Of a DNA stretch of 13,782 nucleotides, positions 731 to 13,782 are shown piece after piece; within the stretch, counting starts at the first letter, position 1, and each line of letters begins with the position of its first letter. The position numbers and the translations under genes are program-made. The stretch comes from a virus. The stretch is from UHGV virus genome UHGV-0081265; one strand, written 5' to 3'. The notes beneath the pieces are model-generated. The model did not search any database, had not been told where the DNA came from, and was given only the letters and a program-made list of their open reading frames with translations.

Positions 731-1834
731 TTATTTCAACTTTAACGCCAAATCTTCAGCTTTTGGATGATAATACCGCATTAGCATTCTTGGATCTTTA
801 TGTCCTGTAATTTTGGTTAGTTCATGCATAGGGAAAATTTCAGCAAGTCGAGAAGTTGCTTCATGTCGAAGGTCATGAAATCTTAAATCTTTAAGGAAAG
901 ATTCATCACATAATGAGTTTGTTTTCTCGTATCGTTCTCTGGCTCGTTTTACAGCTCGGTCAAAAGCTCGGGTAATCGCGTCTGCACGCATATCAAAAAC
1001 CTTATCAGCAGCTGGCTTAGAATGTTCCTTGAGACTGGACAGTATCGTAATGGCTTTCGTTGATAAAGGGACATCGCGGGCATTACCATTCTTAGTATCC
1101 GGCAGATGTGCAACTCGCCGATCAAGATCGATAAAGCGCCATCGAAGCTCTGCGATTTCGCTACGGCGCATGGCTGTCTCTAACGCCAGAAGAATGATTG
1201 CTGGCAATACTAATGAATGTGTTGCGGCGATGATATGTTCGATCTCGTTGGCTATTTGCTTTCCTGACGTAACACCGGTTTTCTCAGAAACTACAGGCAG
1301 CGCTTCCAGGCGTCTGGTCCTGGAGTTCTTGGGTTGGGGTTTGCGAATGGCCTCTACGGGGTTCAGCAGGCTCTCCATGCCCCATTCTTTCCGCGAAACA
1401 TTGAATACATGAGAAAGTAAGGCCAAACGCCTTAAAACGGTTGCAGGAGCATAGATTTTCAACCATTCATCTCTCAGCTTGGCGACATCGGCACTCCTGA
1501 TGCTGGCCATATAGTTTTTCGCCAGCTGAGTGCCTTTTAGTATCCGCACCAATGATCGGTCTTGCACTGCCCCTTTTTTGTCGGGAACAATCTCTTTTTC
1601 ATATCGCGTTAGGGCTTCATACAATGTCGTAGATTCCGCTTCGCTGCGGCTAAGCCAAACTCCTCTCGCCATTTCTGACTCGATCATTTTGGCCCAAGCT
1701 TCTGCTTCTACTTTGGTGTTAAAGGTTTTGGTTTGAGAGGGAAAACCACGTTTACGGATTTGAGCTTCCCATTGGTAGTTACCACGTTTGCGTATAGTCG
1801 CCATTTCTGTCTGATTCCTAACGAACTGTGGCAA
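731..1834 (-). CDS. int: tyrosine-type site-specific recombinase / phage integrase
   Basis: 367-aa ORF with the catalytic signature of tyrosine recombinases: Arg in ETAMRRSEIAELRW, His-x-x-Arg in FHDLRHEATSRL, Tyr in MLMRYYHPK. Its start lies ~58 bp from the tRNA-Thr fragment. Confidence 0.85.
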   Translation of the reverse strand: MPQFVRNQTEMATIRKRGNYQWEAQIRKRGFPSQTKTFNTKVEAEAWAKMIESEMARGVWLSRSEAESTTLYEALTRYEKEIVPDKKGAVQDRSLVRILKGTQLAKNYMASIRSADVAKLRDEWLKIYAPATVLRRLALLSHVFNVSRKEWGMESLLNPVEAIRKPQPKNSRTRRLEALPVVSEKTGVTSGKQIANEIEHIIAATHSLVLPAIILLALETAMRRSEIAELRWRFIDLDRRVAHLPDTKNGNARDVPLSTKAITILSSLKEHSKPAADKVFDMRADAITRAFDRAVKRARERYEKTNSLCDESFLKDLRFHDLRHEATSRLAEIFPMHELTKITGHKDPRMLMRYYHPKAEDLALKLK

Positions 1835-1892
1835 TATTGTGGCAAAAAATCCATTTAAATTCGATAGGTATTGATTTTACAAGATCAATTTA

Positions 1893-1941
1893 CGCATTCG
1901 TAATGCGAAGGTCGTAGGTTCGACTCCTATTATCGGCACCA
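1893..1941 (+). other. partial tRNA-Thr (thrW-like) 3' segment, 49 nt, ending in CCA; attachment-site remnant, not a complete tRNA gene
   Basis: CGCATTCGTAATGCGAAGGTCGTAGGTTCGACTCCTATTATCGGCACCA matches the anticodon-loop-to-CCA portion of E. coli tRNA-Thr(CGU) as I recall it. The upstream sequence does not continue into the D-arm or acceptor stem. Confidence 0.7.
1925..1941 (+). repeat. 17-bp att core direct repeat, left copy (TCCTATTATCGGCACCA)
   Basis: Identical 17-mer occurs again at 13351-13367. Together they bracket an ~11.4 kb gene set that begins with an integrase. Confidence 0.75.
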
Positions 1942-2053
1942 TCTCTTAGTATTTCCAAGTCATCTCAAATCAACAAAACCCTTTAAAAACATAGATATTA
2001 CGCGATTTTTCGTCATTTGACGTCAACCCCTATCTCTTGAAATCAACATACAA

Positions 2054-2106
2054 TTGGGGGCACAATCGGGGGCATGTTCTGTTCGGTCTAGGAAATGTGC
2101 CCCCAA
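2054..2106. promoter_or_regulatory. GGGGGCA repeat cluster with an 11-bp inverted repeat (TTGGGGGCACA / TGTGCCCCCAA) ending at the integrase start codon; candidate Int arm-type sites and/or start-sequestering hairpin
   Basis: Direct GGGGGCA copies at 2056-2062 and 2068-2074, inverted copy at 2096-2106 abutting the ATG at 2106. Similar GGGGGCAT motifs sit on the other side of the att core at 13269-13292. Confidence 0.4.
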
Positions 2107-3287
2107 TGATGCTGAATGCCCGCAAGGTTGAAGCCGCTAAAGGAAAAGAGAAGAGCTATAAGCTATCTGATGGAGGTGGCCTGTACCTTCAGGTTGAACC
2201 TAATGGCTCGCGTTACTGGCGTATGAAGTATCGTTTTGCTGGTAAAGAGAAGCGCTTGTCCTTTGGTGTCTATCCAACAGTCACCCTCGCAGATGCCAGA
2301 CAAAAACGCGAAGACGCAAAGAAACTACTCGCAGCAGGTGAAGATCCTGGCGAAGTGAAAAAAGCAAAGAAGCATGCTTTAAACGCAGCGACCGAGACAC
2401 TTAACCCATTCAGAGAAGTGGCGTTAGAGTGGCACAAAATGAAATCTCCCAAATGGTCTGAGGGCTATGCTTCAGACATCATTGAGGCGTTTGAGAAAGA
2501 CATTTTCCCGCATATTGGACACAGACCTATAGCCGATATTCAGCCCCTAGAACTACTTGAAGTACTGAGGTTGATAGAAGCACGAGGCGCTATGGAGAAA
2601 GCGAAGAAAGTCCGTCAGCGATGCGGTGAAGTTTTCCGCTATGCCATCGTAACGGGTAGAGCAATCTACAATCCTGCACCGGATCTTGCCAGTGCGATGC
2701 AAGGACATGAAGCAGTCCACTATCCATTCCTCAAAGCCAACGAGCTGCCGGAGTTCTTTACTGCCCTTAACGCTTATTCAGGAAGCCCAATTGTATTGCT
2801 GGGGGCACATTTACTTATCCTGACGGGTCTAAGAACAGGAGAGCTAAGAGCAGGTGAGTGGCGTGAGGTGGATTTTGATAATGCGGTGTGGGAGATTCCC
2901 AAAGAACGTATGAAAATGCGACGTGCTCATATTGTGCCGCTTTCAAATCAAGCATTAGTCCATCTTGAAACCTTAAAAGAACTGACTGGAAACTATCCTT
3001 TGATGTTTCCTGGGCGTAACGATCCAAGTAAGTGCATGAGTGAGGCCAGTATTAATCAGGTCTTTAAGCGTATTGGATATGCTGGCCGTGTTACTGGCCA
3101 TGGCTTCAGACACACAATGAGCACTATTTTGCATGAAAAAGGCTTCAATAGTGCATGGATTGAAACCCAGCTTGCACATTTGGATAAAAATGCTATTCGG
3201 GGGATATACAATCATGCTCAGTATCTTGAGGGGCGTCGGGAAATGATGCAATGGTACAGTGATTTTATTGGTGGAACGGAGTCTTGA
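2106..3287 (+). CDS. int: P4-family tyrosine integrase (start moved to the internal ATG at 2106; the ORF-track start at 2037 is a TTG)
   Basis: N-terminal arm-binding-type region (KLSDGGGLYLQVEPNGSRYWRMKYRFAGKEKRLSFGVYPTVTLADARQKRED) typical of P4-like integrases. Catalytic Arg (LTGLRTGELR), His-x-x-Arg (GHGFRHT) and Tyr (IRGIYNHAQY). Lies directly downstream of the tRNA 3' fragment in the same orientation. Confidence 0.9.
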   Translation: MMLNARKVEAAKGKEKSYKLSDGGGLYLQVEPNGSRYWRMKYRFAGKEKRLSFGVYPTVTLADARQKREDAKKLLAAGEDPGEVKKAKKHALNAATETLNPFREVALEWHKMKSPKWSEGYASDIIEAFEKDIFPHIGHRPIADIQPLELLEVLRLIEARGAMEKAKKVRQRCGEVFRYAIVTGRAIYNPAPDLASAMQGHEAVHYPFLKANELPEFFTALNAYSGSPIVLLGAHLLILTGLRTGELRAGEWREVDFDNAVWEIPKERMKMRRAHIVPLSNQALVHLETLKELTGNYPLMFPGRNDPSKCMSEASINQVFKRIGYAGRVTGHGFRHTMSTILHEKGFNSAWIETQLAHLDKNAIRGIYNHAQYLEGRREMMQWYSDFIGGTES

Positions 3288-3290
3288 GTA

Positions 3291-4079
3291 ATGGCAAATA
3301 ATACTCTCAAGCTTCATCGAACTCATTATAGCATTAGTGAGACCGCTAAAATATTGGGCTGCGATGAGCAAGATGTTATTTATATTGCGGATGAAAAAGA
3401 CATTCCATTGTCGCTAAGAATGTGTGGGCGATGGTCTTTTTCAAAGCATAAAGTAAGAGATGTGGACTCCTTTATTCAGAATATAAACTCTTTGAAAAAA
3501 GACAAAGATGGTTTCAGTTATATATCTGAGTTTAGTTTGATTAAGATTAATGAAGTTAAAAAAGATAAAAAACTAGTGCTGGCGAGTACAAAAGGCTATT
3601 TCCAAATGCCACCAAAGGTTAAAAGTGATTTCGTTTTTTATGAAGGGCAGTTCCCGGAGTACCCATCATTGTTATCTCCTGCTGGTACCACCTATTCTGA
3701 AATGGTCAAATATATTCAAATTGACTGGAAAAATGATGATGGGTTTGGATATGAGGGAGATGCGTACCTGGAGCGGGAAGATGTAAAGAAATTGCATCTA
3801 ATATTAAATGATGATGTTTCTAATGATAAATATAAATCGTTATCAATTGCACAGCAAGAAAGACATGCTACCAAGAGAAATGAGATTCTAAGTGTAGCAT
3901 TATATCTTTATAAAGAGGATATGGCATACCGAAAGGAAAATGCAGCAGCCCTTGCTGACCTTATCTTTAGTCGGGCTGAGGAATTTTGGCCTGATAAAAA
4001 AGAGCCTCCGCTATCACACCCAATTATTAGCAAACTAATATCATCTATATTCAAGAAACCATCATTTACAAAAAATTAA
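3291..4079 (+). CDS. hypothetical protein: N-terminal excisionase/AlpA-type HTH plus ~190-aa domain of unknown function; AT-rich
   Basis: ATG 4 bp after the int stop with RBS GGAACGGAG. Residues ~14-60 (ISETAKILGCDEQDVIYIADEKDIPLSLRMCGRWSFSKHKVRD) resemble the Xis/AlpA helix-turn-helix. Markedly lower GC than the flanking int gene. Followed by a strong terminator. Confidence 0.7.
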   Translation: MANNTLKLHRTHYSISETAKILGCDEQDVIYIADEKDIPLSLRMCGRWSFSKHKVRDVDSFIQNINSLKKDKDGFSYISEFSLIKINEVKKDKKLVLASTKGYFQMPPKVKSDFVFYEGQFPEYPSLLSPAGTTYSEMVKYIQIDWKNDDGFGYEGDAYLEREDVKKLHLILNDDVSNDKYKSLSIAQQERHATKRNEILSVALYLYKEDMAYRKENAAALADLIFSRAEEFWPDKKEPPLSHPIISKLISSIFKKPSFTKN

Positions 4080-4086
4080 CAATTTT

Positions 4087-4121
4087 GGCGAGTAAGGAGA
4101 TTTTTCTTACTCGCCTTTTTT
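4087..4121 (+). terminator. rho-independent terminator ending the int-orf262 transcription unit
   Basis: 10-bp perfect stem GGCGAGTAAG / CTTACTCGCC, 9-nt loop, followed by TTTTTT. Confidence 0.8.
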
Positions 4122-4186
4122 ATATTTTTGAACGATGTTTTAATCCTCTTCGTTGATATAGATTGATACATAGAGAGGAACTCATT

Positions 4187-4387
4187 ATGGGGTTTACTGA
4201 TAATCGTCCTTCTGCTGACTCGCTCATTGATATGAAATTCATTACATCTGATTGTCTTTTTACTGATAAATGGATTTATAAACTGATTTCTCTGGGACGT
4301 TTTCCTAAACCAATCAAGTTAGGTCGTATGTCCCGATGGCGTGCTGGTGACTACTATGCTTGGCGTGATAGTCATTCTTCAGAGTAA
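4187..4387 (+). CDS. alpA: AlpA/Vis-family phage transcriptional regulator / excisionase-like DNA-binding protein
   Basis: Sequence FITSDCLFTDKWIYKLISLGRFPKPIKLGRMSRWRAGDYYAW is the classic AlpA-family HTH motif. Start placed at ATG 4187, 6 nt after RBS AGAGAGGA; the ORF-track start at 4163 is a TTG. Confidence 0.8.
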   Translation: MGFTDNRPSADSLIDMKFITSDCLFTDKWIYKLISLGRFPKPIKLGRMSRWRAGDYYAWRDSHSSE

Positions 4388-4423
4388 AAACATTAGTATT
4401 AGAAGCATTTATGAGGAGTTTAT

Positions 4424-5296
4424 ATGAATTACCGTCTACAACCAGCGGGGAGTCAATACATATCCCTTCCAATTAAGAATGAATATGTTTCCGTGTTAGG
4501 AAACTATAAAGTAAGTCCGTTTAAAGAAACTCATAGCGACACTGCATGTATTGTGCGAATTATTGAAATATTTTCATTGAATAAGCTGCGCGCTAAAGGT
4601 GAAAAGCTGTATTCACTTACGGGGTTAACAGTACCTGATACGGAAGCTGTGGCGAATGAGATCAACCTGCTCCTGAGCCGTTATGCCCAGTTGTGTCGTC
4701 AGGAAGAGGAAGAGTTATCTTTCCGGCAGCGTGAAGTGACAAATGCGGAAGTTGCATGGAAAAGCACATTCTCAAAAAACGGCGTCAGTAGCATTGCTGA
4801 AGCCAAAACGAATAAAACGGGGCATGCTGAACGAGCGGATGCTGAACGGTGTTACCATCTGGCTGTTTCTCGGCTGAATGAGCAACATAGCCGACTGAGC
4901 ACAATCAAGCTTTTACCGGGCGTACTGGTCGATGAAGTTAACTACATTGGTAAGGGAGTTGAGAAGCGTTTACTGAGCATATTTCCTCAATCCGGCCAGA
5001 TCCCTGCTGATTTTATTTCTGTGTTTAATGACAGTGACGTTGTTCGTGATATTAAATTTATTACAGATGCACTCAAATCTTTGTCTGATTCTGTGAATGA
5101 AATTATTAGCCGTTGTAGCGTTCCAACTGATCGTTATGTATTAAATAACGGTGGAATGGCAAGAGCTATGGCTTACAGGGAGTACTATCGAGCAGATAAT
5201 TATGTATTACGTTCAGTCGTTAGTGACCGGGATTATGTTGAGCATGTAATGAAATACAATCGGGTTACTGAGTACAAAAATAAAATCTTTTCTTAA
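4424..5296 (+). CDS. hypothetical protein, 290 aa; possible head-morphogenesis partner of the downstream capsid homolog
   Basis: Good RBS (GAGGAG) before ATG 4424. Sits immediately upstream of the GpN-like gene (23-bp gap). No family recognised by eye. The capsid-related role is inferred from position only. Confidence 0.6.
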   Translation: MNYRLQPAGSQYISLPIKNEYVSVLGNYKVSPFKETHSDTACIVRIIEIFSLNKLRAKGEKLYSLTGLTVPDTEAVANEINLLLSRYAQLCRQEEEELSFRQREVTNAEVAWKSTFSKNGVSSIAEAKTNKTGHAERADAERCYHLAVSRLNEQHSRLSTIKLLPGVLVDEVNYIGKGVEKRLLSIFPQSGQIPADFISVFNDSDVVRDIKFITDALKSLSDSVNEIISRCSVPTDRYVLNNGGMARAMAYREYYRADNYVLRSVVSDRDYVEHVMKYNRVTEYKNKIFS

Positions 5297-5318
5297 ATAC
5301 TAAAAAAGGTGAAAAACT

Positions 5319-6323
5319 ATGTATGCCTTCAAAACTGAAAGGCCGGACGCAGCACGTCGTTATCATAATAAATTCGTCACTGGTACTAACTATCAGGAGG
5401 AATCAAACAGACGCTTTGCATTAAGCGAACCCACTGAAAATATACTGCGTACCTCAATTCTGGAATCCGGGTGGCTTATTAAAAATATCACCCTACGTGA
5501 TGTTAACGCCGTGTCAGGTAATGCCGTCAATATTGGTGCCAGTGAACTGCATACCGGACGTGTGGATGGTGGCCGTTTCCACAAAAAAATGGCAATCAAT
5601 GGTACGGAGTTCTTTCTGACAGAGACGGATACCTGCGCCCGGATCAGCTATTCCGATATGTCTCATATTTACCATACCGGCGTGCCGGATGAGTTTGAGA
5701 AAACGGTTGAGAGCTTTTTTTCCCAGGCATATGCGCTGGACATGCTGCGGGTCGGTTTCAACGGTGTGTCGATTGCAAATACTACAAACCCGGAAATCAA
5801 TAAAAAAGGCGAGGATGTCAATATTGGCTGGCATGCACTGGCGAAAGCTTACGGGAACGGGAAGCAAATCATTTCTGAGCCTGTCACGCTGGGAGAGTCT
5901 GGCACCTGGAAAAACATTGATGCTCTGGCCAACCATCTGATTACTGAGCTTATTGCTGAGCAGTTTCGTGAAGATCCCCGTCTGGTTGTACTGGTTGGGG
6001 CAGAGCTGGCAGCACATCAACGCCTGAAGTTATTTAATGCCGCAGACCGCCCGGCTGATGTGAATGCGGCACAGATGGCGACAAGTTCTGTTGCTGGCCG
6101 CTTTGCGTTTATTCCCCCGTTTATGCCGGGTAAGCGTCTGGTAGTAACGACGCTGGATAATTTGCATATTTACACTCAGGCGATAACACGGTGGTTTCGT
6201 GCTGAGTTTGATGATGAAAACAGTGAATACGTACATTCCTACCTGCGTAATGAAGGCTATGCACTCGGTGAACCTGAACTGTACGCGGCTGTCGATGAGA
6301 GCGCCCTGACGTTTGCTGATTGA
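5319..6323 (+). CDS. P2 GpN-family major capsid protein homolog (HK97-fold capsid protein)
   Basis: 334 aa with RBS AAGGTGA. Several blocks align to P2 GpN as I recall it: ALDMLRVGFNGV vs SLDFIMAGFNGV; DALANHLITELIAEQFREDPRLVVLVGAELAA vs DALVMDATNNLIEPWYQEDPDLVVIVGRQLLA; TTLDNLHIYT vs TKLENLSIYY. Similar length to GpN (357 aa). Confidence 0.7.
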   Translation: MYAFKTERPDAARRYHNKFVTGTNYQEESNRRFALSEPTENILRTSILESGWLIKNITLRDVNAVSGNAVNIGASELHTGRVDGGRFHKKMAINGTEFFLTETDTCARISYSDMSHIYHTGVPDEFEKTVESFFSQAYALDMLRVGFNGVSIANTTNPEINKKGEDVNIGWHALAKAYGNGKQIISEPVTLGESGTWKNIDALANHLITELIAEQFREDPRLVVLVGAELAAHQRLKLFNAADRPADVNAAQMATSSVAGRFAFIPPFMPGKRLVVTTLDNLHIYTQAITRWFRAEFDDENSEYVHSYLRNEGYALGEPELYAAVDESALTFAD

Positions 6324-6336
6324 CTTAGCGACAGAA

Positions 6337-6363
6337 AGACCCGCTCAGAGGCGGGTCTCGTTT
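6337..6363 (+). terminator. putative rho-independent terminator after the capsid-homolog gene
   Basis: 8-bp stem AGACCCGC / GCGGGTCT with 6-nt loop, followed by a short T-tract (CGTTTA). Confidence 0.55.
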
Positions 6364-6520
6364 ACAGCATCAGGAAAAATGAAGAACTATTTTTAAGCAG
6401 AGGCTTAAGCATGCCAGCGTTAATTAATCCAGGCAATCATCAGTTTTCGGTTATAAATTTCTTGCCTCACAAGGAATACGCGGGATATAGTTCAAAGGTT
6501 GCCGCAAAATCGGCAGCCGG

Positions 6521-6786
6521 GCGTAGGAACCCGTGTAATCTAACGGCGACACAACACGCGCCAGGCGTGTTTTTTTGTGTCGTAGCTTTGACTCACCTTC
6601 GTTTTATGGTGTGGTGGCTGACTGCATGTTTTTATTTTTTACGCCACATCATCAGAATTATGGTAGTCCAGGCGGGGCAGCTTTCGGGCTGGCCGGTATC
6701 CGTTAGAGCCGGTATTCCTACCCCCGTCTGGGCTACCACCCATGAGCGTAGGAACTCCGGTGGTAGCGTTACCCGCTATCTAACGG
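6521..6786 (+). ncRNA. P4-type RNA immunity region: two direct repeats (seqA-like 6521-6546, seqC-like 6746-6786) flanking a complementary seqB-like element (6700-6721); candidate CI-RNA-like immunity RNA
   Basis: GCGTAGGAAC...ATCTAACGG occurs twice. Between them, CCGTTAGAGCCGGTATTCCTAC is the reverse complement of both sub-blocks (GTAGGAA and TCTAACGG). An internal terminator (6554-6576) and a 9-bp stem (GCTACCACC / GGTGGTAGC, 6731-6767) are present. Position upstream of the small-ORF/primase operon matches P4 organisation. Confidence 0.45.
6554..6576 (+). terminator. rho-independent terminator inside the immunity region
   Basis: Stem ACACGC / GCGTGT with 5-nt loop, followed by TTTTTT. Confidence 0.7.
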
Positions 6787-6797
6787 AGGTTGCCATT

Positions 6798-7001
6798 ATG
6801 GCTACAGTCCCTGCTTTATCTCACCCTGAATTTACCTTTGTTTTTCTGGCTGTCCGCCGTACAGACCGTGATGCCTGTCCACGTCCTGTGCGTGTAATCG
6901 CAGACTGCGAGCATGCTGCACGACTCAAACTTGCCACTGAATTTATCCTGAGCTTTGCTGCCCGTATCCCTGTGAAAAGCGCCGGGGAGGTGGTTGCATG
7001 A
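6798..7001 (+). CDS. small hypothetical protein (~67 aa), first gene of the replication operon
   Basis: ATG 6798 preceded by GGAGG. This is the C-terminal in-frame part of the 196-aa ORF-track entry, whose upstream part overlaps the terminator and repeats and is probably not translated. Stop overlaps the next start (ATGA). Confidence 0.5.
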   Translation: MATVPALSHPEFTFVFLAVRRTDRDACPRPVRVIADCEHAARLKLATEFILSFAARIPVKSAGEVVA

Positions 7002-7234
7002 AATCCATGAATTTTAAGCAAGGCTGCATATTGAGCGAACTAGGTGAGAGTCGTCTGTTACGGGCGGCACTGGCCAGTGAGTTTCTTGCAGAGGTCCTGT
7101 CCGTTCCCACAGTGAATGGAGCGAGAACTGTTTCAGCGGAAGGCGCTGCGGCTTTAGTGGCCTGTATTGCCGAACAACTGGATGGCGTTGTTAAGGAAAC
7201 CAGCACAATTAAGGGAGTGATGCGCGATGAATAA
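6998..7234 (+). CDS. small hypothetical protein (78 aa), translationally coupled
   Basis: ATG overlaps the upstream stop (ATGA), RBS GGGGAGG. Position is analogous to the epsilon/derepression genes of P4-like elements; no motif recognised. Confidence 0.55.
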   Translation: MKSMNFKQGCILSELGESRLLRAALASEFLAEVLSVPTVNGARTVSAEGAAALVACIAEQLDGVVKETSTIKGVMRDE

Positions 7235-7637
7235 TAATCAAAATTTAAAGGCGCATGCTTTACGAACAGCAGTCTTACGGTACTACATTGCTGATTCATT
7301 CATTTCCTTAATGGAGCGTGTTCATAATGAACCTGTTTATATTGAAGATGGCGAACGAATAGAACTCACCCACGAAAAAGTGGTGAGTAATATTATTTAC
7401 CATATTGAAATGCCGTGGGTGAATGAGTTTGGGGCTGATGCAGGTTGCATACTGGCCGCAGAAAAACTGGAAAAAATGCTTAAACCGGGCTTTATGTCAG
7501 AAAATATTCGCCTGTCAGTTTTTGGTGTCACAGAGATGCGTGAGGTTTACCGGGATATTATTTTCGGTGCACCTGATGGCGAACTACCCGAAGGTTTTGA
7601 GTTTGTGAAGCCGGAAGGTCAGGAGGTGCTGCTGTGA
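7227..7637 (+). CDS. hypothetical protein (136 aa), translationally coupled to the primase
   Basis: Start overlaps the upstream stop. Its own stop TGA overlaps the GTG start of the primase gene. Confidence 0.6.
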   Translation: MNNNQNLKAHALRTAVLRYYIADSFISLMERVHNEPVYIEDGERIELTHEKVVSNIIYHIEMPWVNEFGADAGCILAAEKLEKMLKPGFMSENIRLSVFGVTEMREVYRDIIFGAPDGELPEGFEFVKPEGQEVLL

Positions 7638-10321
7638 AAACACCGTCTGTATCCACGATTTCCGGGGCTGCAATTGGGCGCTGGCCTTATATCCTGTCAG
7701 CATTAGGTATCAAAGTACCGTCCGCAGGACATCATGGGGCTTGCCCTGCCTGTGGTGGCAAAGATCGCTTTCGGCTGGACGATAAAGCGGGGCGTGGGAC
7801 GTGGTTTTGTAATCAGTGCGGTCATGGCGATGGTCTTGATCTGGTTCGTCTGGTGACAGGAAGAAAGATAAAAGAAGTCGCCGGGATGGTATCTGAGGCG
7901 CTTGCATTACCAGAAATACAGGAGAAGCCCGCTTTGCCTGCCAGGAAAAAGGCCGCAGGAAAAGAAGCGGGCGCGGAGCGATATACCAGACTCAGACAGC
8001 AGTCCTGCAATGGTGAACCGGTCTATCTGACAAACAAGGGCTTACATGGGTATTCACTTCCCTTGCTGTCACAGCCTTTGAATCTGGCCGGAATAACATT
8101 TTCCTCCGGTTCATTACTGCTGCCGTTGACGGATATTTCCGGGAATATTACTGGTGGCCAGCTTATCAATCCTGACGGGGATAAAAGTCTGCTGCCCGGT
8201 AGCCAGCTGTCTGGCGCATTCATTGCCCTGACCGATATACCCGCTGAAACACCTGAACAGGTGATTATAACAGAGGGTTTTGCCACGGCGCTTACCGTCA
8301 GTCTGCTGACTGAAGGATGGATCGTGGCGGCTGTTGCTGCCACCAATTTACTGAAGGTGACGGAGCAGATCCGGAAACGCTGGCCGGAAACCCGGATCAT
8401 TCTGGCTGGCGATAATGATCTGGCTGACGGGAAAGAAAACACCGGGCGTATTCAGGCAGAGAAAGCTGCCAAAGCAGTGGATGGCTGGGTAACGCTCCCT
8501 CCGGTACGCCATAAGGCTGACTGGGATGATTATCGGCAGGAAGTGGGGAAAGAACGGGCGAGAGATGCCTTTCGTGAAGAAATGACGCTGCATGGCAAAG
8601 GGCAGACCCGTTTACCAGAAGGGTTCCGGCTGACAAAAGAATATTTGTGGTACGACAAGCTGGTTAATAAGTCTGATGGTGATACGGAGATACGAAATAT
8701 CAAAATTTGCAGTCCGTTACGGGTGACGGCAATCACCAGTGATGCTGATGGAAGTAATTACGGGCGTTTGCTGGAATGGGAAGATACCAACGGAAACAGC
8801 CGTAAATGGGCAATGCCAATGGAGATGCTGGGTGGCAGCGGGGAAGAGCTGCGCCGCGTTCTGCTGGTTAACGGGCTTTCTTACATCAACATTAACGGTA
8901 TGGCCAGAGCATTCCTTATGGAATATATCTCGCTGTGTAAACCGGACAGAAAAGTAACCTGTGTAAATAAAACGGGCTGGCACGGCGGGGTTTACGTTCT
9001 CCAGGATGAAGTGATAGGACGTGAAGCCCAGTCAGTCATCTTACAAACGTCGAGTGTGCAGGGGCGTGATTTTCGTGTCAGCGGTACATCAGAGGACTGG
9101 CGTGAAAATATAAGCCGTTACTGCATAAATAATGCCCGTCTTGCCTTTGCGGTGAGTCTGGCATTTGCTGCCCCCCTTCTGAAACTGGTTGGTATCGGCG
9201 GTGGAGGTTATCACCTCAAAGGGGAATCAACGGATGGTAAAACCACGACGATGAAAGTGGCTGCTTCAGTATGTGGTGGAACAGATTTCTGGCATACGTG
9301 GCGGGCGACGGGGAATGCCTTAGAAGGAACGGCGAGCCGCCGTAATGATGCCACGCTGATGCTGGATGAAATCCGGGAGGTTGACGGCAGGGAGGCGGGG
9401 AATATCGCTTATATGCTGGCTAACGGGCAGGGCAAAGCCAGAGCCAGAACAGATGGTTCGGTAAGGGAAACCAACCGCTGGAATCTGTTGTTTCTGTCCA
9501 CCGGGGAACTGTCACTGGTAGAACATGCGGCAAGCGCCGGGGAACGTACGTATGCCGGGGTTGAGGTCAGAATGATCCAGATCCCAAGCGATTCGGGCAA
9601 ATATGGCGTGTTTGAAGAACTTCATGGCTTCAGTAGCGGGAAAACCCTGGCAGAGCATCTTGAGCAGCATGTAGCGCATTATCATGGCGCACCATTCCGC
9701 GACTGGCTGCATTGCCTGACCGCTGATCTGCCGGAACTGACCAGCCAGGCCAAAGCCTTATTGAAAGAGTACACCCGAAGGCTGACGCCGGAAAATGCCG
9801 GGAATCAGGTTGGCCGGGCTGTTACCCGTTTTGCTCTGGTTGCAATGGCCGGGGAACTGGCCACAAAAGCGGGCATCACAGGATGGCCGGAGGGAGAGGC
9901 CTTTCGTGCCGCCCAAAGTTGTCTGGCTGCATGGATGGCTGACCGGGGCCATACAGCTAATCAGGAAGATAAAGCGGCACTTGAACAGGTACGGGACTTC
10001 ATGACGCGTAATCAGTTCAGTCGGTTTGCTGACTGGAATGACGACAGGAACCGGCCTGTTTCAATGATGGGATTCAGAAAAGTCGATAAAGGAGACAACG
10101 TGACAGAGCCGGTTGTGACGTTCTACGTTCTCCCATCAGGCTGGAAGGAGATCTGTAAGGGATTTGATTCGCGTAAGGTGGCTAGGTTGTGTGTGGACGC
10201 GGGCTGGCTGAAACCCGGTGAAGATGGCCGGACGCAAAACAGCATTCGCCTGCCAGAAATAGGGCTTAAACGTGTGTACCAGTTCAATACGCAGGTACTG
10301 GGAAGCGCCGAACCGGAGTAA
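7634..10321 (+). CDS. P4 alpha-like bifunctional DNA primase-helicase
   Basis: 895 aa. N-terminal zinc ribbon (CPACGG...CNQCGH), TOPRIM motifs (IITEGFATALTVS; ILAGDND), P-loop helicase Walker A (GESTDGKTT) and Walker B (LMLDEIRE). GTG start 8 nt after AGGAGG. Confidence 0.9.
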   Translation: MKTPSVSTISGAAIGRWPYILSALGIKVPSAGHHGACPACGGKDRFRLDDKAGRGTWFCNQCGHGDGLDLVRLVTGRKIKEVAGMVSEALALPEIQEKPALPARKKAAGKEAGAERYTRLRQQSCNGEPVYLTNKGLHGYSLPLLSQPLNLAGITFSSGSLLLPLTDISGNITGGQLINPDGDKSLLPGSQLSGAFIALTDIPAETPEQVIITEGFATALTVSLLTEGWIVAAVAATNLLKVTEQIRKRWPETRIILAGDNDLADGKENTGRIQAEKAAKAVDGWVTLPPVRHKADWDDYRQEVGKERARDAFREEMTLHGKGQTRLPEGFRLTKEYLWYDKLVNKSDGDTEIRNIKICSPLRVTAITSDADGSNYGRLLEWEDTNGNSRKWAMPMEMLGGSGEELRRVLLVNGLSYININGMARAFLMEYISLCKPDRKVTCVNKTGWHGGVYVLQDEVIGREAQSVILQTSSVQGRDFRVSGTSEDWRENISRYCINNARLAFAVSLAFAAPLLKLVGIGGGGYHLKGESTDGKTTTMKVAASVCGGTDFWHTWRATGNALEGTASRRNDATLMLDEIREVDGREAGNIAYMLANGQGKARARTDGSVRETNRWNLLFLSTGELSLVEHAASAGERTYAGVEVRMIQIPSDSGKYGVFEELHGFSSGKTLAEHLEQHVAHYHGAPFRDWLHCLTADLPELTSQAKALLKEYTRRLTPENAGNQVGRAVTRFALVAMAGELATKAGITGWPEGEAFRAAQSCLAAWMADRGHTANQEDKAALEQVRDFMTRNQFSRFADWNDDRNRPVSMMGFRKVDKGDNVTEPVVTFYVLPSGWKEICKGFDSRKVARLCVDAGWLKPGEDGRTQNSIRLPEIGLKRVYQFNTQVLGSAEPE

Positions 10322-10347
10322 TTATCGCGTGAGTCTTATTTTTATGA

Positions 10348-10540
10348 GGTAACACTGGTAACAGAGGTAACGCCCGCTACTGATGCGGTTCTTCAGTGTT
10401 ACCAGTCAAAAATACTGACTGGTAACAGAGGTAACAAAAAATGGTGCGTTACCACGCGTTACCTCTTGATTATGTTAACTGGTAACAGATTAAATCCTTT
10501 TAAATCAATAGCGTTACACGTGTTACCAGTGTTACACGTT
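10348..10540. repeat. iteron array (GGTAACA / TGTTACC heptamers, at least 10 copies, direct and inverted); candidate crr/ori-type binding sites for the primase-helicase
   Basis: Copies at 10348, 10357, 10366, 10397 (inv), 10421, 10430, 10448 (inv), 10457 (inv), 10481, 10522 (inv). 17-bp direct repeat CTGGTAACAGAGGTAAC at 10355-10371 and 10419-10435. 12-bp perfect inverted repeat TGTTACCAGTCA / TGACTGGTAACA at 10397-10408 and 10416-10427. Lies immediately 3' of the primase gene, as P4 crr does; P4 iterons (TGTTCACC) are similar. Confidence 0.6.
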
Positions 10541-10603
10541 CAGAACAAGAGGTAGGGACCCAAATCCCTTCTTCTGGCGGGCAACAGTAAAGGGCACAGA
10601 ACG

Positions 10604-10876
10604 ATGAAGATGATGAGAATGTACTGCCCCACATGTCAGGCAGTAGCGCGGATAGGTAAAACAAACAGGAAACACCCACAACTGTACGATGTGTACTGCT
10701 ATTGCTCTAATGTGGAGTGCGGTCACTCGTTTGTGATGAATGTTGCTTTCTCCCATTCCGTTAGTCCAAGCGCGCTGAACGGGCAGGGGAGGGTTAAAGA
10801 GCTAATTGATGCCATTCCACCCGAGGAGCGGGAAAAGGCTTTAAAGTTGCTGCTGGCTGCGCAAAAGAATGGGTAA
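10604..10876 (+). CDS. Ogr/Delta-family zinc-finger late-gene transcriptional activator
   Basis: Cys spacing C-x2-C-x22-C-x4-C (YCPTCQ...CYCSNVEC) is the Ogr/Delta signature. Size (85-90 aa) is Ogr-like. The true start may be the internal ATG at 10619. Confidence 0.8.
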   Translation: MKMMRMYCPTCQAVARIGKTNRKHPQLYDVYCYCSNVECGHSFVMNVAFSHSVSPSALNGQGRVKELIDAIPPEEREKALKLLLAAQKNG

Positions 10877-11482
10877 AGTATGCGTCGGGAATGGCCGATC
10901 CGTTCCCGGAACCTGACCACAGGATTTCAGTTTATACGAACATAAAATTATTATTTTTCAATTTGTTATGTTTTTCGTATTTCACGAACCTTCATAAAAT
11001 CACACACCTAAAATAAATTATCCATTTAATATCATAGTGTTGCGTATTCAGGCCACAAATGCGACGGACAGTAAAACTGAAAAAAGCTGAATTTCTTTTC
11101 ATTCTTTTCAGTTCCTGCCTCGCAGTGCATCCCCAGCACGGACGCGGGCTGGCGGTATCGTTTGTAAAAAATCACAACTGAAAAATTTTAGTGATATGAA
11201 AACCGCAGGCGGGTGCGGTGTAGTGCGATTTTGGTCTTATAAAGATTTGTGTCTTAAAATTAATTAATGGTTTTAACTATTTGTTTGGAATTAATTTCAC
11301 AATGTACATGTTTGATATGAATGATAAATTAGTATATGCTTGAGTAAAGAAATGATGTATATTTTTATGGTCGAGGTGTAAGCGCTTTTTTGATGTATTT
11401 AATAGGTGTATGTTTTTATTAATCGGAGAATTGTTAATATTTATAATTGTTATAAAATAGAAATCGCTATGAAGGTGTGTAT

Positions 11483-12085
11483 ATGAGAGATAATTCAAAT
11501 AAAGTAAAGGGGTATGTAAGACGTAAAGTTGATTTGTATATTTTGTCATTAGCTATTTTATTTTGTTTTTTTATTTTTATTACAATAAAATTTCCTGTGT
11601 GTTTTGGGGCTAAATGTGAGTTCATTGGCTGGTCTTTGCTGTTGAAAAATAATATTGTTCCCTTGATTTGCGTAGGGTTGCTTTTATATTGTGGGGTGGC
11701 CTACAAAAGGTTTCAATATGACACAAATAAAAGTGTCGAACTTCCAATGAAAATAACAAAAATTGAAAAAATAAATTATGAGCACCTTACCTTTTTAGCC
11801 ACATATATTATCCCATTGATTACATTTGATTTTGAAAAAGAAAGGTATGTGATCGTTCTAGCAGTTCTCTTGATAATTATGGGTATTATTTATATTAAAA
11901 CGGATTTGTTTTACGCTAATCCATCCTTGGCTTTATTAGGGTTTAATATTTATAAGTTGGATGTGAGTATAACAGGAGGTATTAATAAAACAGGGCTAAT
12001 ATTAATTACTAGGCGACAGTTAAAAGAAAATGACATGATAAGTTATATTGTGCTTGATGAAAGAGTTTACTATTCTGGAGATTAA
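11483..12085 (+). CDS. small 4-TM membrane protein (200 aa); first gene of an AT-rich two-gene cargo; KwaA-like architecture, unverified
   Basis: ATG 11483 after RBS GAAGG. Four hydrophobic helices (LYILSLAILFCFFIFITI, IVPLICVGLLLYCGVAY, LTFLATYIIPLITF, YVIVLAVLLIIMGIIYI) then a ~60-aa soluble tail. Very AT-rich. A 10-bp gap separates it from the next gene. Confidence 0.65.
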   Translation: MRDNSNKVKGYVRRKVDLYILSLAILFCFFIFITIKFPVCFGAKCEFIGWSLLLKNNIVPLICVGLLLYCGVAYKRFQYDTNKSVELPMKITKIEKINYEHLTFLATYIIPLITFDFEKERYVIVLAVLLIIMGIIYIKTDLFYANPSLALLGFNIYKLDVSITGGINKTGLILITRRQLKENDMISYIVLDERVYYSGD

Positions 12086-12094
12086 GGATTAAAT

Positions 12095-13078
12095 ATGTCA
12101 CCGCAGCAATTGGATAAAAAAGGCTTGGATGATAATCTAAGTTATTATATTAATAATAAAGATGATATTTCTGTTATTGTTTATGCCATTCTAAAAAATA
12201 GCCCTGTTGCATATCGAATGGATATAGAGGGAAGCGCTCAAGATGGCCTCAAAGAATTATTTTTAGAAAGTATAAAAAATAATATCATTGATAATGATGA
12301 TATCAGTATTTTACCTCTTTCGTCAGCAGATGAAAGAAATAATGTTATTTATCATTACGATATTGAATGGCCTGATGAGTTAACCTCCATGCAAAGTATG
12401 CTTGGGCAGCAAGGGGAGAGTGTTTTTGATTTTAATGTACAAAATATTGAAGATATTAGAGTGTTGCTAATTTGTATTGGTAATGTACAACAACAAATTA
12501 TACTCTACAAAACAATGGCTCCAGTCAATATTTTCTCTCGCTCAGGTTTTTTTCTAAAAAAATCAGCAACAAGACTTGAGGAAATTGAAGATGATTTTTT
12601 TCGAGTTAGTGATAATTTTCAAATTATCAAAGTTGAAAATGATTTATATGTGGTAGATCTTAAGTTAATCGAGAAAATGTTTGGTTTTCACGAGGTTATC
12701 AAAAAAGAGGCTACACTTGGCATGAATGCCATTGAGAGTATGAATATTATCACTGATATAAATGTGATAAAAGAACTAATAGATGATGTAAAATATGCTA
12801 GAAAACTAACAAGGATAGCAAAATCTTCTCCAGTAATATTAGCTAATATTGAAAATGAAAAAATTATAGAGTTTTGTAAAACCTACCCAGTGTTGGTCAA
12901 TAGAATCAGATTTAATGAAGATGGAACAAAGATCGCACTTGACACGAAGGTTTCAAAAGATCTATTTATTAAAATTCTGATGGATGATTTTTTAACCTCA
13001 CAGTTGACTCAATTTTATTATGAGAGTCTAGCAAAAGATGCAGTAAAAATAGCCGCTGATAATACTAAAGAAAACTAA
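12095..13078 (+). CDS. 327-aa soluble protein, second gene of the two-gene cargo; size and context fit KwaB (DUF4868) of Kiwa, but domain not confirmed
   Basis: RBS AAGGA before ATG 12095. Acidic, AT-rich, no TM segment, no obvious nuclease or NTPase motif by eye. Followed by a terminator hairpin. Lies in the variable position next to attR. Confidence 0.65.
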   Translation: MSPQQLDKKGLDDNLSYYINNKDDISVIVYAILKNSPVAYRMDIEGSAQDGLKELFLESIKNNIIDNDDISILPLSSADERNNVIYHYDIEWPDELTSMQSMLGQQGESVFDFNVQNIEDIRVLLICIGNVQQQIILYKTMAPVNIFSRSGFFLKKSATRLEEIEDDFFRVSDNFQIIKVENDLYVVDLKLIEKMFGFHEVIKKEATLGMNAIESMNIITDINVIKELIDDVKYARKLTRIAKSSPVILANIENEKIIEFCKTYPVLVNRIRFNEDGTKIALDTKVSKDLFIKILMDDFLTSQLTQFYYESLAKDAVKIAADNTKEN

Positions 13079-13083
13079 TTAAT

Positions 13084-13109
13084 ATTGTGGTGAGATTATT
13101 CACCACAAT
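13084..13109. terminator. terminator-like hairpin after the cargo operon
   Basis: 10-bp perfect stem ATTGTGGTGA / TCACCACAAT with 6-nt loop in AT-rich context, 6 bp after the stop of the 327-aa gene. Confidence 0.5.
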
Positions 13110-13268
13110 AATATTATCTAATATATTGATTGTGTTTTAAGTGTTTTAATTCTATTGTGAAAAAATTGACTTTGTTTTGATTTGGCAAAATTATAGCTTT
13201 TCTATTACTCACCCTGATGAAATGATCGATTAATCTATCTAGCATGCTGAAGTTACAGCTAAGGTGTA

Positions 13269-13292
13269 GGGGGGGGGCATTTTAGGGGGCAT
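13269..13292 (+). promoter_or_regulatory. G-run / GGGGGCAT repeats adjacent to the right att core; candidate integrase arm-type sites
   Basis: GGGGGGGGGCAT (13269-13280) and GGGGGCAT (13285-13292), same motif as the copies next to the left att core at 2056-2075. Confidence 0.35.
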
Positions 13293-13350
13293 TGATATGA
13301 TTGTTGTATTTTTTTATTAACAAAAACATTGTGTTATCGTTGTATTTTGT

Positions 13351-13367
13351 TCCTATTATCGGCACCA
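13351..13367 (+). repeat. 17-bp att core direct repeat, right copy (TCCTATTATCGGCACCA)
   Basis: Exact copy of 1925-1941 (the tRNA-Thr 3' end). Upstream sequence no longer matches the tRNA, so this is the element-distal junction. Confidence 0.75.
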
Positions 13368-13644
13368 TTAAAATCAAATTGTTACGTAAGATCTTATCAT
13401 TCTCCCACCAAAAAATTATCTTAATGTAACAGCTGGTGTAAGTAAATTCTATCAACGAAGATCAATCTTATCTACTGACCAAAAAGGCCTGATAGGGCTT
13501 CGCTCACTATACATCCTTGGCTGCAGGTTTAGTTGTACACCACTCCTAAATTTAATGTGTTGGCAATGTGTTCAATAAAGCTCGAACAAATTAGCTCATT
13601 ATGATCGGTTAATACTTCAACTTCTGGTTGCATGATTGTTTGTC

Positions 13645-13683
13645 CGTAAAAAGATAACGCGCCTGCCGGGTAGTAGCAGGCGC
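13645..13683 (-). terminator. rho-independent terminator on the minus strand
   Basis: 8-bp stem GCGCCTGC / GCAGGCGC (13659-13666 and 13676-13683) with 9-nt loop. On the minus strand it is followed by GTTATCTTTTTACGG. Confidence 0.5.
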
Positions 13684-13729
13684 ATTACGCAATAGGTAAA
13701 CAAGGGAGGAAGTTCAGAAATGTAAATCG

Positions 13730-13782
13730 GGTAATGACTCCAACTTATTGATAGTGTTTTATGTTCAGATAATGCCCGATGA
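13730..13782 (+). mobile_element. IS1 terminal fragment (left-end inverted repeat); element continues beyond the right edge of the window
   Basis: GGTAATGACTCCAACTTATTGATAGTGTTTTATGTTCAGATAATGCCCGATGA, perfect inverted copy of bases 1-53. Confidence 0.85.

Follow-up and report, generated by a model that had tools for sequence, protein, structure and literature searches.

Background

P4-like phage satellites have been defined by the genes int, psu, delta, sid, alpA, epsilon and alpha (PMC8628076, PMC10085698), and the features of phage-inducible chromosomal islands (PICIs) of Gram-negative bacteria have been set out in their description (PMC6092414) and in the PICI model of SatelliteFinder (PMC10085698). 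Some satellites also carry a homologue of a helper capsid protein. The PICI PmCI172 forms small capsids and encodes such a homologue (PMC6092414), and Ccm, the capsid homologue of the Staphylococcus aureus pathogenicity island (SaPI) SaPIbov5, is described in a preprint as redirecting assembly to small capsids (bioRxiv 10.1101/2022.09.08.507074). Here we analyse a stretch of 13,782 nt from the virus genome UHGV-0081265 (hereafter "the window"), which harbors an 11.4-kb element inserted at the 3' end of a tRNA-Thr gene. An earlier note, made from the letters alone, had read this element as a complete P4-like satellite; that interpretation proved essentially right, and the insertion is now confirmed as real. 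The satellite nature and the boundaries of the element are well supported, and "P4/PICI hybrid lineage" is the description that suits it best. On the sequence evidence given below, we consider it likely that the element is an intact integrative satellite mobilised by a peduovirus resembling Cronobacter phage ESSI-2. Our literature search found no paper describing this lineage, no report on a P4-like satellite at thrW and no satellite on record for ESSI-2-like peduoviruses.

A discrete insertion at thrW

The element is bracketed by two exact copies of the 17-mer TCCTATTATCGGCACCA (Table 1), as the earlier note had observed. Even when two mismatches are allowed, the window has no third copy, and 200 shuffled sequences give an expectation of zero. 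The 17-mer corresponds to the 3' terminus of thrW, a tRNA-Thr gene: genomes of Escherichia coli K-12 match the window at 100% from 13351 to 13727, the match begins at the first base of the right 17-mer, and the tRNA-Thr gene is annotated beneath it. The proposed tRNA-Thr origin of the repeats thus holds, with the qualification that the left copy lies in a 49-nt remnant of the gene; ARAGORN detects no complete tRNA gene in the window.

The boundaries are fixed by an empty site. Window segments 58-1941 and 13368-13727, when joined, reproduce the corresponding locus of E. coli FAM21845 with no mismatch over 2,244 nt, and this strain has identical upstream genes and identical downstream CP4-6 genes with nothing in between. 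This exact junction match therefore establishes a discrete 11,426-bp insertion (1925-13350, counting one copy of the repeat), in agreement with the size first proposed. Strains TK3887 and LI60C3 carry the same backbone directly after an intact thrW, downstream of proBA, and a 100% identical copy spanning 1896-13731 is present in AH04, AH02 and CT01, the annotation of the AH04 copy being free of pseudogene flags. The thrW-derived segment 1893-1945 also matches attP cores in the records of phages mEpX2 and GF-2 and of P22-like phages. An arm-type motif, GGGGGCAY, occurs six times in the window (0.65 expected), grouped inside both ends of the element as would be suitable for binding of its integrase.

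P4-type modules in a PICI-type layout

All 12 genes of the element lie on the plus strand, with int in the first position, so that the claim of co-directional genes stands. The identities given beforehand to the integrase, the immunity region, the primase, the iterons, the Ogr-like protein and the cargo were likewise borne out by Pfam, Rfam and repeat scans. The integrase start adopted here is the ATG of the AH04 annotation, the open reading frame (ORF) itself opening at 2037. The AlpA-like protein, also named beforehand, scores 20.3 bits against PF05930, just below the 21-bit cut-off, and its position and size fit a PICI alpA. Of the window's 15 GGTAAC hexamers (4.5 expected window-wide), ten fall within 10348-10527, in the probable replication origin. 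Ogr is encoded downstream of both the primase gene and the iterons, as had been noted.

The element proteins were compared with the P4 genome by tblastn. The integrase is 43% identical to P4 Int over 412 aa, the immunity region 50% identical to the cI/CI-RNA region of P4 (8189-8728), and the N-terminal 317 aa of the primase 38% identical to P4 alpha; the remainder of the primase, a DUF927 domain, finds no match in the helicase part of alpha. Similarity between Ogr and P4 delta is marginal (21% identity). The same search gave no match to Sid, to Psu (for which Pfam and PHROG were also negative), to the epsilon coding sequence (CDS; 7888-8175) or to ORF151, and no significant match between the AlpA-like protein and ORF88. 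The earlier remark that Sid and Psu are not evident is therefore upheld.

The resemblance to P4 extends to an overall size of about 11.5 kb, to integration at a tRNA 3' end by a P4-type integrase, to a homologous RNA immunity region (isrK-like leader, CI/C4 RNA and seqC), to the zinc-ribbon/Toprim N-terminus of the primase, to the Ogr/Delta-family activator and to a P2-family-style cos site beside a hotspot for defence genes; orf136, weakly similar to the P4 ORF106 family, occupies the same place upstream of the primase gene. In contrast to P4, the element has no Sid, Psu or divergent late operon and no match to the epsilon CDS, its ogr is placed after the primase gene and origin, its helicase part is of the DUF927 rather than the P4 alpha type, its cos and hotspot lie at the end far from int with a core of ESSI-2 type, and it encodes a major capsid protein of its own, which P4 does not. 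From the P4-like core set we thus find the integrase and an Ogr-family activator, and miss Sid, Psu and the P2/P4 cos; ogr is a single 90-aa Ogr module outside any psu-delta-sid operon. Because two defining genes and the late-operon organisation are absent, the sequence argues against filing this satellite as a member of the P4-like family. The earlier reading as a P4-like satellite accordingly stands as far as a satellite with P4-type modules is concerned, and fails as a family assignment, the published definition being left for a Gram-negative PICI layout. The view that it forms a lineage distinct from P4 and is intact agrees with its differing layout and modules and with the lack of pseudogenes.

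In its layout the element follows Gram-negative PICIs, among them EcCICFT073 and PmCI172 (PMC6092414): a one-way order of int, alpA-like gene, capsid homologue, primase and iteron origin within 10-15 kb, no recognised tail, lysis or terminase genes, a helper-like cos signal, and accessory genes at the far end. Int at one end, unidirectional genes, primase followed by iterons, and the capsid homologue are all found here. Searches of Pfam, PHROGs and NCBIfam gave no terminase-related match for any ORF, three ORFs remaining without an assigned function, and the element contains no other structural gene and no lysis gene. Unlike Gram-negative PICIs, the satellite has P4-type RNA immunity and an Ogr activator, no detected homologue of the small terminase (TerS) or Rpp, a capsid protein of the P2 family rather than the lambda E type, and a peduovirus as its putative helper. 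Nor does it satisfy the PICI rule that the attachment site is never used by temperate phages, the thrW 3' end being the attP core of many phages. With cos-type SaPIs carrying Ccm, such as SaPIbov5, it shares a helper capsid homologue and a helper-type cos; host, helper and sequences are unrelated, and the role of the capsid homologue is experimental in SaPIbov5 and inferred from genes here. An HK97-fold capsid protein of its own is a further likeness, to the capsid-forming PICIs (cfPICIs). The cfPICIs also encode a portal, a protease, head-tail connectors and a terminase; in our satellite, Pfam and PHROG searches detect no portal, protease, head-tail connector or large terminase of the cfPICI type. 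The element thus links two satellite families usually held separate: its immunity region, integrase and primase are of P4 type, and they stand, along with a capsid homologue, in a gene order of the PICI type.

An ESSI-2-type cos and the candidate helpers

The terminus of the ESSI-2 record has a counterpart in window segment 11072-11245, at about 77% identity. Further matches to this segment come from E. coli phages (ESSI2_ev015, ev040 and ev129) and from Yersinia phage vB_YenM_324. Matches to this region occur in 11 of 50,697 phage records, all of the ESSI-2 type. Within it lies a presumed cohesive-end core of 19 nt, GGCGGGTGCGGTGTAGTGC, identical to the ESSI-2 core. The ESSI-2 record starts and finishes with the same 15 nt, GCGGGTGCGGTGTAG. 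The ESSI2_ev015 record ends in GGCGGGTGC, and its first 48 nt are sequencing adaptor followed by GTAGCGCC; adaptor and core halves at its ends therefore indicate that the record breaks inside the cos core, as would fit a physical end of the DNA. In the satellite, an identical sequence, AGGCGGGTGCGGTGTAGTGC, spans the core. All related loci that extend to the cos region share a 16-nt core, GGCGGGTGCGGTGTAG, and the 21-nt sequence CAGGCGGGTGCGGTGTAGTGC is identical in the three diverged loci inspected, whose orf290 products are only about 50% identical. A cos site of the P2/P4 type was considered and rejected, since the 19-mer of P2 and P4 (GGCGAGGCGGGGAAAGCAC) is absent from the window at up to three mismatches and a distant-mode comparison with phage records revealed the ESSI-2-type cos instead.

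As a separate matter, positions 1-48 of NC_049395.1 (ESSI2_ev015) are Nextera adaptor (ending in AGATGTGTATAAGAGACAG) fused to the phage end, so that this reference genome contains adaptor contamination.

The closest phage relatives of the capsid protein, of Ogr (50% identical to the ESSI-2 Ogr-like protein) and of the cos region are all ESSI-2-like peduoviruses. These relationships point to the ESSI-2-like peduoviruses as the helper group, and make them, not P2, the probable helpers. The earlier note had proposed a P2-like helper; taken as P2 itself, this is contradicted by the absence of the P2/P4 cos 19-mer and the presence of the ESSI-2 cohesive-end core. In E. coli genomes, the cos type is found only at 80% identity or more (the level of the satellite; about 469 genomes) or at 60-80% (49 genomes); two of these weaker cases were cross-checked, and both lie in genomes with ESSI-2-like head modules.

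A second group of prophages, mostly from pig isolates, has a terminase only 73% identical to that of ESSI2_ev015. In two of its members, 1916D6 and STK78-E, the cos-core part of the satellite region is matched at 89.7%. This group may represent alternative helpers.

The capsid gene and orf290

The capsid protein is of full length and matches PDB entry 7OZ4 as well as the P2 gpN chain of the P4 procapsid structure 7JW1. Its identity to the ESSI-2 capsid protein is 49% over 320 aa. The capsid proteins of satellite copies in other genera are 72-92% identical to this one, phage capsid proteins at most 51%. Among satellite copies, the capsid gene has proportions of non-synonymous differences (pN) of 0.10-0.19 and of synonymous differences (pS) of 0.65-0.83; for the capsid and ogr genes together, pN is 0.10-0.20 and pS 0.65-0.94, both genes being under purifying selection. 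By these comparisons the capsid gene is a long-resident functional gene of the satellite, neither a recent capture nor a relic.

The preceding gene, orf290, is separated by 36 nt from alpA and by 22 nt from the capsid gene, and no terminator intervenes. Its product has no match in Pfam, PHROG, NCBIfam or PADLOC. The family comprises 89 clusters, none annotated, whose source-named members are nearly all from Enterobacteriaceae. The AlphaFold2 (AF2) model, with a predicted local distance difference test score (pLDDT) of 87, is all-alpha with a long helical hairpin; no specific fold or sequence relative was found outside the lineage, and no similarity to the ESSI-2 scaffold GpO. Position and co-conservation suggest orf290 as a candidate partner in capsid assembly. 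Where the earlier note spoke of capsid-related genes, only one of the two, the P2-family capsid gene, is substantiated; the 290-aa protein encoded upstream is without detectable relatives outside the lineage.

A P4-type RNA immunity region with a predicted specificity of its own

In P4, pairing of the CI RNA leads to premature termination of transcription. The immunity region of the satellite is recognised by two Rfam models, isrK followed by C4, and P4 yields the same pair in the same order. In an alignment of seqA and seqB from the satellite, P4 and four relatives, 15 of the 75 predicted pairs are changed on both sides, these compensatory changes tracking lineage. The paired motifs read GTAGGAA/TTCCTAC in the satellite, GTGAGAA/TTCTCAC in P4 and GTGGAAA/TTTCCAC in the Enterobacter and Franconibacter copies. 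The seqC element repeats the seqA motifs, and varies in step with seqA and seqB between lineages. Such a pattern is the signature of a P4-type RNA immunity, here predicted to have its own specificity.

Two database entries overlap this region. A CDS of 196 aa annotated as "Icd-like" (6411-7001) runs across both the isrK-like leader and the C4/CI RNA, and the Pfam family Phage_ASH matches residues 26-141 of this ORF (1.4e-34), overlapping both RNA genes. The actual Icd-like protein is probably the last 67 aa alone, and the family may in part model translated RNA genes, given this overlap. The Rfam family isrK, described as a Hfq-binding small RNA of Salmonella, scores above its gathering threshold on the P4 leader (P4 8615-8692) and therefore looks like a homologue of the P4-type leader bearing seqA.

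Distribution, size and cargo

The orf290-capsid module is present at 95% identity or more in 450 of 5,426 complete E. coli genomes, including many strains of sequence type 131 (ST131). In most of these the match begins at window position 4470, and the genomes with features recorded left of this point have a different integrase module, e.g. IntS. About 8% of complete E. coli genomes, many ST131 strains among them, thus carry the backbone, which makes it a widespread carrier in the exchange of anti-phage systems, Kiwa, Shosta and DRT among them. The full architecture from int through cos recurs in Enterobacter, in Franconibacter and in an assembly labelled Vagococcus, and two Citrobacter contigs carry parts of it. 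The integrase, orf262 and orf290 proteins are about 96-99% identical in Citrobacter youngae (CCUG 30791) and Salmonella enterica; such near identity suggests a recent transfer between genera.

The Vagococcus record (NZ_JBQPOM010000063.1, "Vagococcus sp. WN89Y") holds a full copy of enterobacterial type bounded by the same thrW 17-mer; a wrong label or contamination of this assembly is probable.

Six copies delimited by the 17-mer and differing in cargo measure 11,114-11,967 bp. The P4 genome has 11,624 bp, and those of the candidate helpers 28.8-30.9 kb. The cargo of the present copy is a Kiwa system, with adjacent kwaA and kwaB genes whose PADLOC matches are both near full length. In other copies the slot between cos and attR is occupied by Shosta, by a PDC-M36 candidate, by DRT UG17 with a SLATT protein, by a PDC-M02/restriction endonuclease (REase)-like protein or by sce7725/sce7726. 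This slot mirrors the P4 hotspot beside cos (PMC8628076, PMC13586616).

Proposed life cycle and alternative explanations

The gene content suggests the following cycle. In the resting state, the CI RNA would pair with seqA and seqC in the nascent transcript and terminate the replication operon, as in P4. Infection by, or induction of, an ESSI-2-like peduovirus would turn alpA on, Int and AlpA would excise the element through the 17-bp core, and the primase would replicate the resulting circle from the iterons. The Ogr proteins of satellite and helper would cross-activate late genes, and the helper terminase would cut the satellite cos and package unit-length DNA of 11.4 kb. In the most speculative step, the satellite capsid protein, perhaps together with the co-transcribed orf290 product, would build or co-assemble P4-sized shells, which would use helper portal, scaffold and tails and be too small for the roughly 30-kb helper genome. 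Kiwa would travel with the element and protect the new host.

The capsid-size mechanism is offered as a reasoned hypothesis. We would tentatively raise the possibility that it represents a third, so far unrecognised strategy of capsid piracy in Enterobacteria, in which P4-sized shells are made from the satellite's own P2-family capsid protein and orf290, only portal, scaffold, terminase and tails being taken from ESSI-2-like peduoviruses. Such a strategy would replace the external Sid/Psu cage of P4 and stand between classical PICIs and cfPICIs. Should the satellite's own capsid protein set the size, the element would offer a tractable E. coli system for the choice of shell size in HK97-fold capsids acting without an external cage, and another way of obtaining small transducing particles, free of helper, for use in gene delivery.

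Several points weigh against a satellite mobilised in this way. Excision, replication and packaging, like the role of the capsid gene, are read from the sequence, none of them having been observed. No more than 29 complete E. coli genomes have ESSI-2-like head modules at a coverage of at least 80%; satellite and helper co-occur in four (TK3887 and three near-identical LR7781xx strains) as against about 2.4 by chance, with a chimeric query, and are thus not enriched together. AH04, which has the identical element, has no ESSI-2-like prophage. In IMG/VR no unit-length satellite contig was found, every copy being part of a longer contig (about 14.5-65 kb). The Ogr box of P2 type, TGT-N12-ACA, shows no enrichment (4 occurrences, 3.5 expected) and does not occur upstream of orf290 or the capsid gene; nor does it occur in the helper's own head-gene promoter region, and the motif is uninformative here. 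No link was found between orf290 and any scaffold, Sid or Psu. Finally, the capsid homologue of EcCICFT073 is dispensable for transfer, which takes place in full-size heads (PMC6092414, PMC10111431); therefore the capsid gene may serve interference rather than particle formation.

Between genes, an exact TGT-N12-ACA motif occurs once, at 10530-10547, about 57 nt ahead of the start codon of ogr and overlapping the final iterons; this site could be a promoter that responds to Ogr, or a chance occurrence.

The EcCICFT073 precedent (PMC6092414, PMC10111431), together with the lack of a detectable scaffold relationship for orf290, would suit a satellite packaged as multimers in normal helper heads, its capsid homologue and orf290 interfering with the helper or being dispensable. 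We regard this as rather unlikely, given that the six copies keep to 11.1-12.0 kb, the size of P4, despite different cargo, that a dimer would amount to about 75% and a trimer to about 115% of a helper genome of 29-31 kb, and that the capsid protein is of full length and under strong purifying selection.

The rarity of candidate helper prophages, their lack of enrichment with the element, and the constant presence of defence genes in the slot after cos could also describe an integrative defence island that is no longer mobilised by phages, in which satellite relics persist and the capsid homologue acts as a decoy poisoning P2-like assembly. We find this very doubtful: the cos core is kept across genera in all examined relatives reaching it, the size is tightly constrained, near-identical copies exist in E. 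coli, Citrobacter and Salmonella, and the integrase, arm sites, immunity RNA, primase and iterons are all intact.

Hardly any more room is left for a true P4-family satellite helped by P2 itself. The homology of the integrase, the CI RNA immunity and the primase N-terminus to P4 is what such an element would show, but the P2/P4 cos is missing even at three mismatches, Sid, Psu and a match to the epsilon CDS are lacking, and the capsid protein, Ogr and cos are closest to those of ESSI-2-type phages.

A decayed P2-like prophage remnant, for which the P2-family capsid gene, the Ogr gene and the P2-family-style cos could be cited, is most unlikely in view of the precise insertion, the architecture conserved in 450 E. 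coli genomes and several genera, the satellite capsid proteins 72-92% identical mutually and no closer than 51% to any phage, the P4-type integrase, RNA immunity and primase (against ESSI-2, tblastn gave matches for the capsid protein and Ogr alone), and the absence of other structural or lysis genes and of pseudogenes. An intact satellite mobilised by ESSI-2-like peduoviruses accordingly remains our preferred reading.

Features of the element

Table 1. Features of the satellite and its attachment sites in the 13,782-nt window of UHGV-0081265
Feature	Position	Strand	Evidence
thrW 3' remnant, 49 nt, anticodon arm onward	1893-1941	+	Sequence read; no tRNA by ARAGORN
attL core, left 17-bp repeat	1925-1941	+	Repeat search; FAM21845 empty site
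Three arm-type motifs GGGGGCAY, putative integrase-binding	2056-2104 (2056, 2068, 2097)	-	Motif scan
Tyrosine integrase, P4 Int type, 393 aa	2106-3287	+	Arm-DNA-bind_3, Phage_int_M, Phage_integrase (Pfam)
orf262, weak N-terminal helix-turn-helix (HTH)	3291-4079	+	HTH_17 E=0.046
Intrinsic terminator closing int-orf262 unit	4087-4115	+	13-pair stem then T run
AlpA-like small HTH regulator or excision factor, 66 aa	4187-4387	+	PF05930; HTH regulator in AH04 annotation
orf290	4424-5296	+	All-alpha, lineage-specific
P2-family (HK97-fold) major capsid protein homologue, 334 aa	5319-6323	+	PF05125 4.8e-67
GC-rich hairpin after capsid gene, probable terminator	6338-6357	+	Sequence read; not called by consensus scan
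Promoter-like site upstream of immunity leader (position of P4 P_LE)	6462-6491	+	TTGCCT-18-TATAGT, consensus match alone
Immunity leader, Rfam isrK model	6498-6575	+	RF01394 71.8 bits
seqA in leader	6519-6548	+	
Terminator inside leader	6553-6571	+	
CI/C4-type immunity RNA	6656-6743	+	RF01695 81 bits; homologous position in P4
seqB in CI RNA	6700-6725	+	
seqC, second target repeat (GTAGGAA ... ATCTAACGG), 3' of CI RNA	6746-6789	+	
Icd-like small protein, 67 aa	6798-7001	+	NF033153 1.2e-18
orf78	6998-7234	+	phrog_38507 (function not known); conserved in relatives
orf136, weak DUF5375	7227-7637	+	PF17345 E=0.018, below cut-off; phrog_5991
Primase-helicase: zinc ribbon, Toprim, DUF927	7634-10321	+	Pfam; phrog_1139 DNA primase 2e-186
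Iteron array, GGTAAC in both orientations, probable replication origin	10340-10535		Repeat families D1, D3, I2, I3
Ogr/Delta-type zinc-finger late-gene activator, 90 aa, C-X2-C-X22-C-X4-C	10604-10876	+	PF04606 5e-14
cos region	11072-11245	+	Conserved non-coding block
Presumed 19-nt cohesive-end core	11208-11226	+	Identical to ESSI-2 core
kwaA (Kiwa)	11483-12085	+	PADLOC KwaA 4.4e-83; AH04 annotation
kwaB (Kiwa)	12095-13078	+	PF16162 3.6e-41; PADLOC KwaB 2.6e-131
Terminator after kwaB	13083-13110	+	
Two right-arm arm-type motifs GGGGGCAT	13273-13292	+	Motif scan
attR core, right 17-bp repeat; runs into K-12-type sequence downstream of thrW	13351-13367	+	

Of the genes listed in Table 1, orf262 is conserved in position and fast-evolving in sequence, with only 14 clusters of relatives. 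Pfam, PHROG and NCBIfam scans assign it to no family, and its AF2 model (pLDDT 70.7) has no significant match in the PDB.

Surroundings of the element

Upstream of the satellite, on the minus strand, lie a second tyrosine integrase gene (731-1834) and a gene for a 229-aa protein of unassigned family (32-721). In FAM21845 and GPEC60-12-649 both genes stand at the end of an element in which trbL, a gene of conjugative transfer, is also found. The downstream flank is the CP4-6 remnant (ykfI, yafW and others). With the upstream element, the satellite and the CP4-6 remnant as neighbours, thrW is therefore occupied in tandem. The 49-nt remnant of thrW is the part displaced by the upstream element; the last 17 nt of this remnant were then used by the satellite. 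Assignment of the upstream integrase to the end of a P22-like prophage was also considered, and is ruled out by the trbL neighbourhood in the two genomes named.

In RefSeq, the thrW 3' remnant and the stretch preceding it (roughly window 1830-1941) bear a 112-nt "tRNA-Ser" annotation. This is probably an artefact, because ARAGORN sees no tRNA there. Both ends of the window, 1-57 and 13728-13782, are termini of the insertion sequence IS1, and AH04 has an IS1 copy in the same downstream flank at another position.

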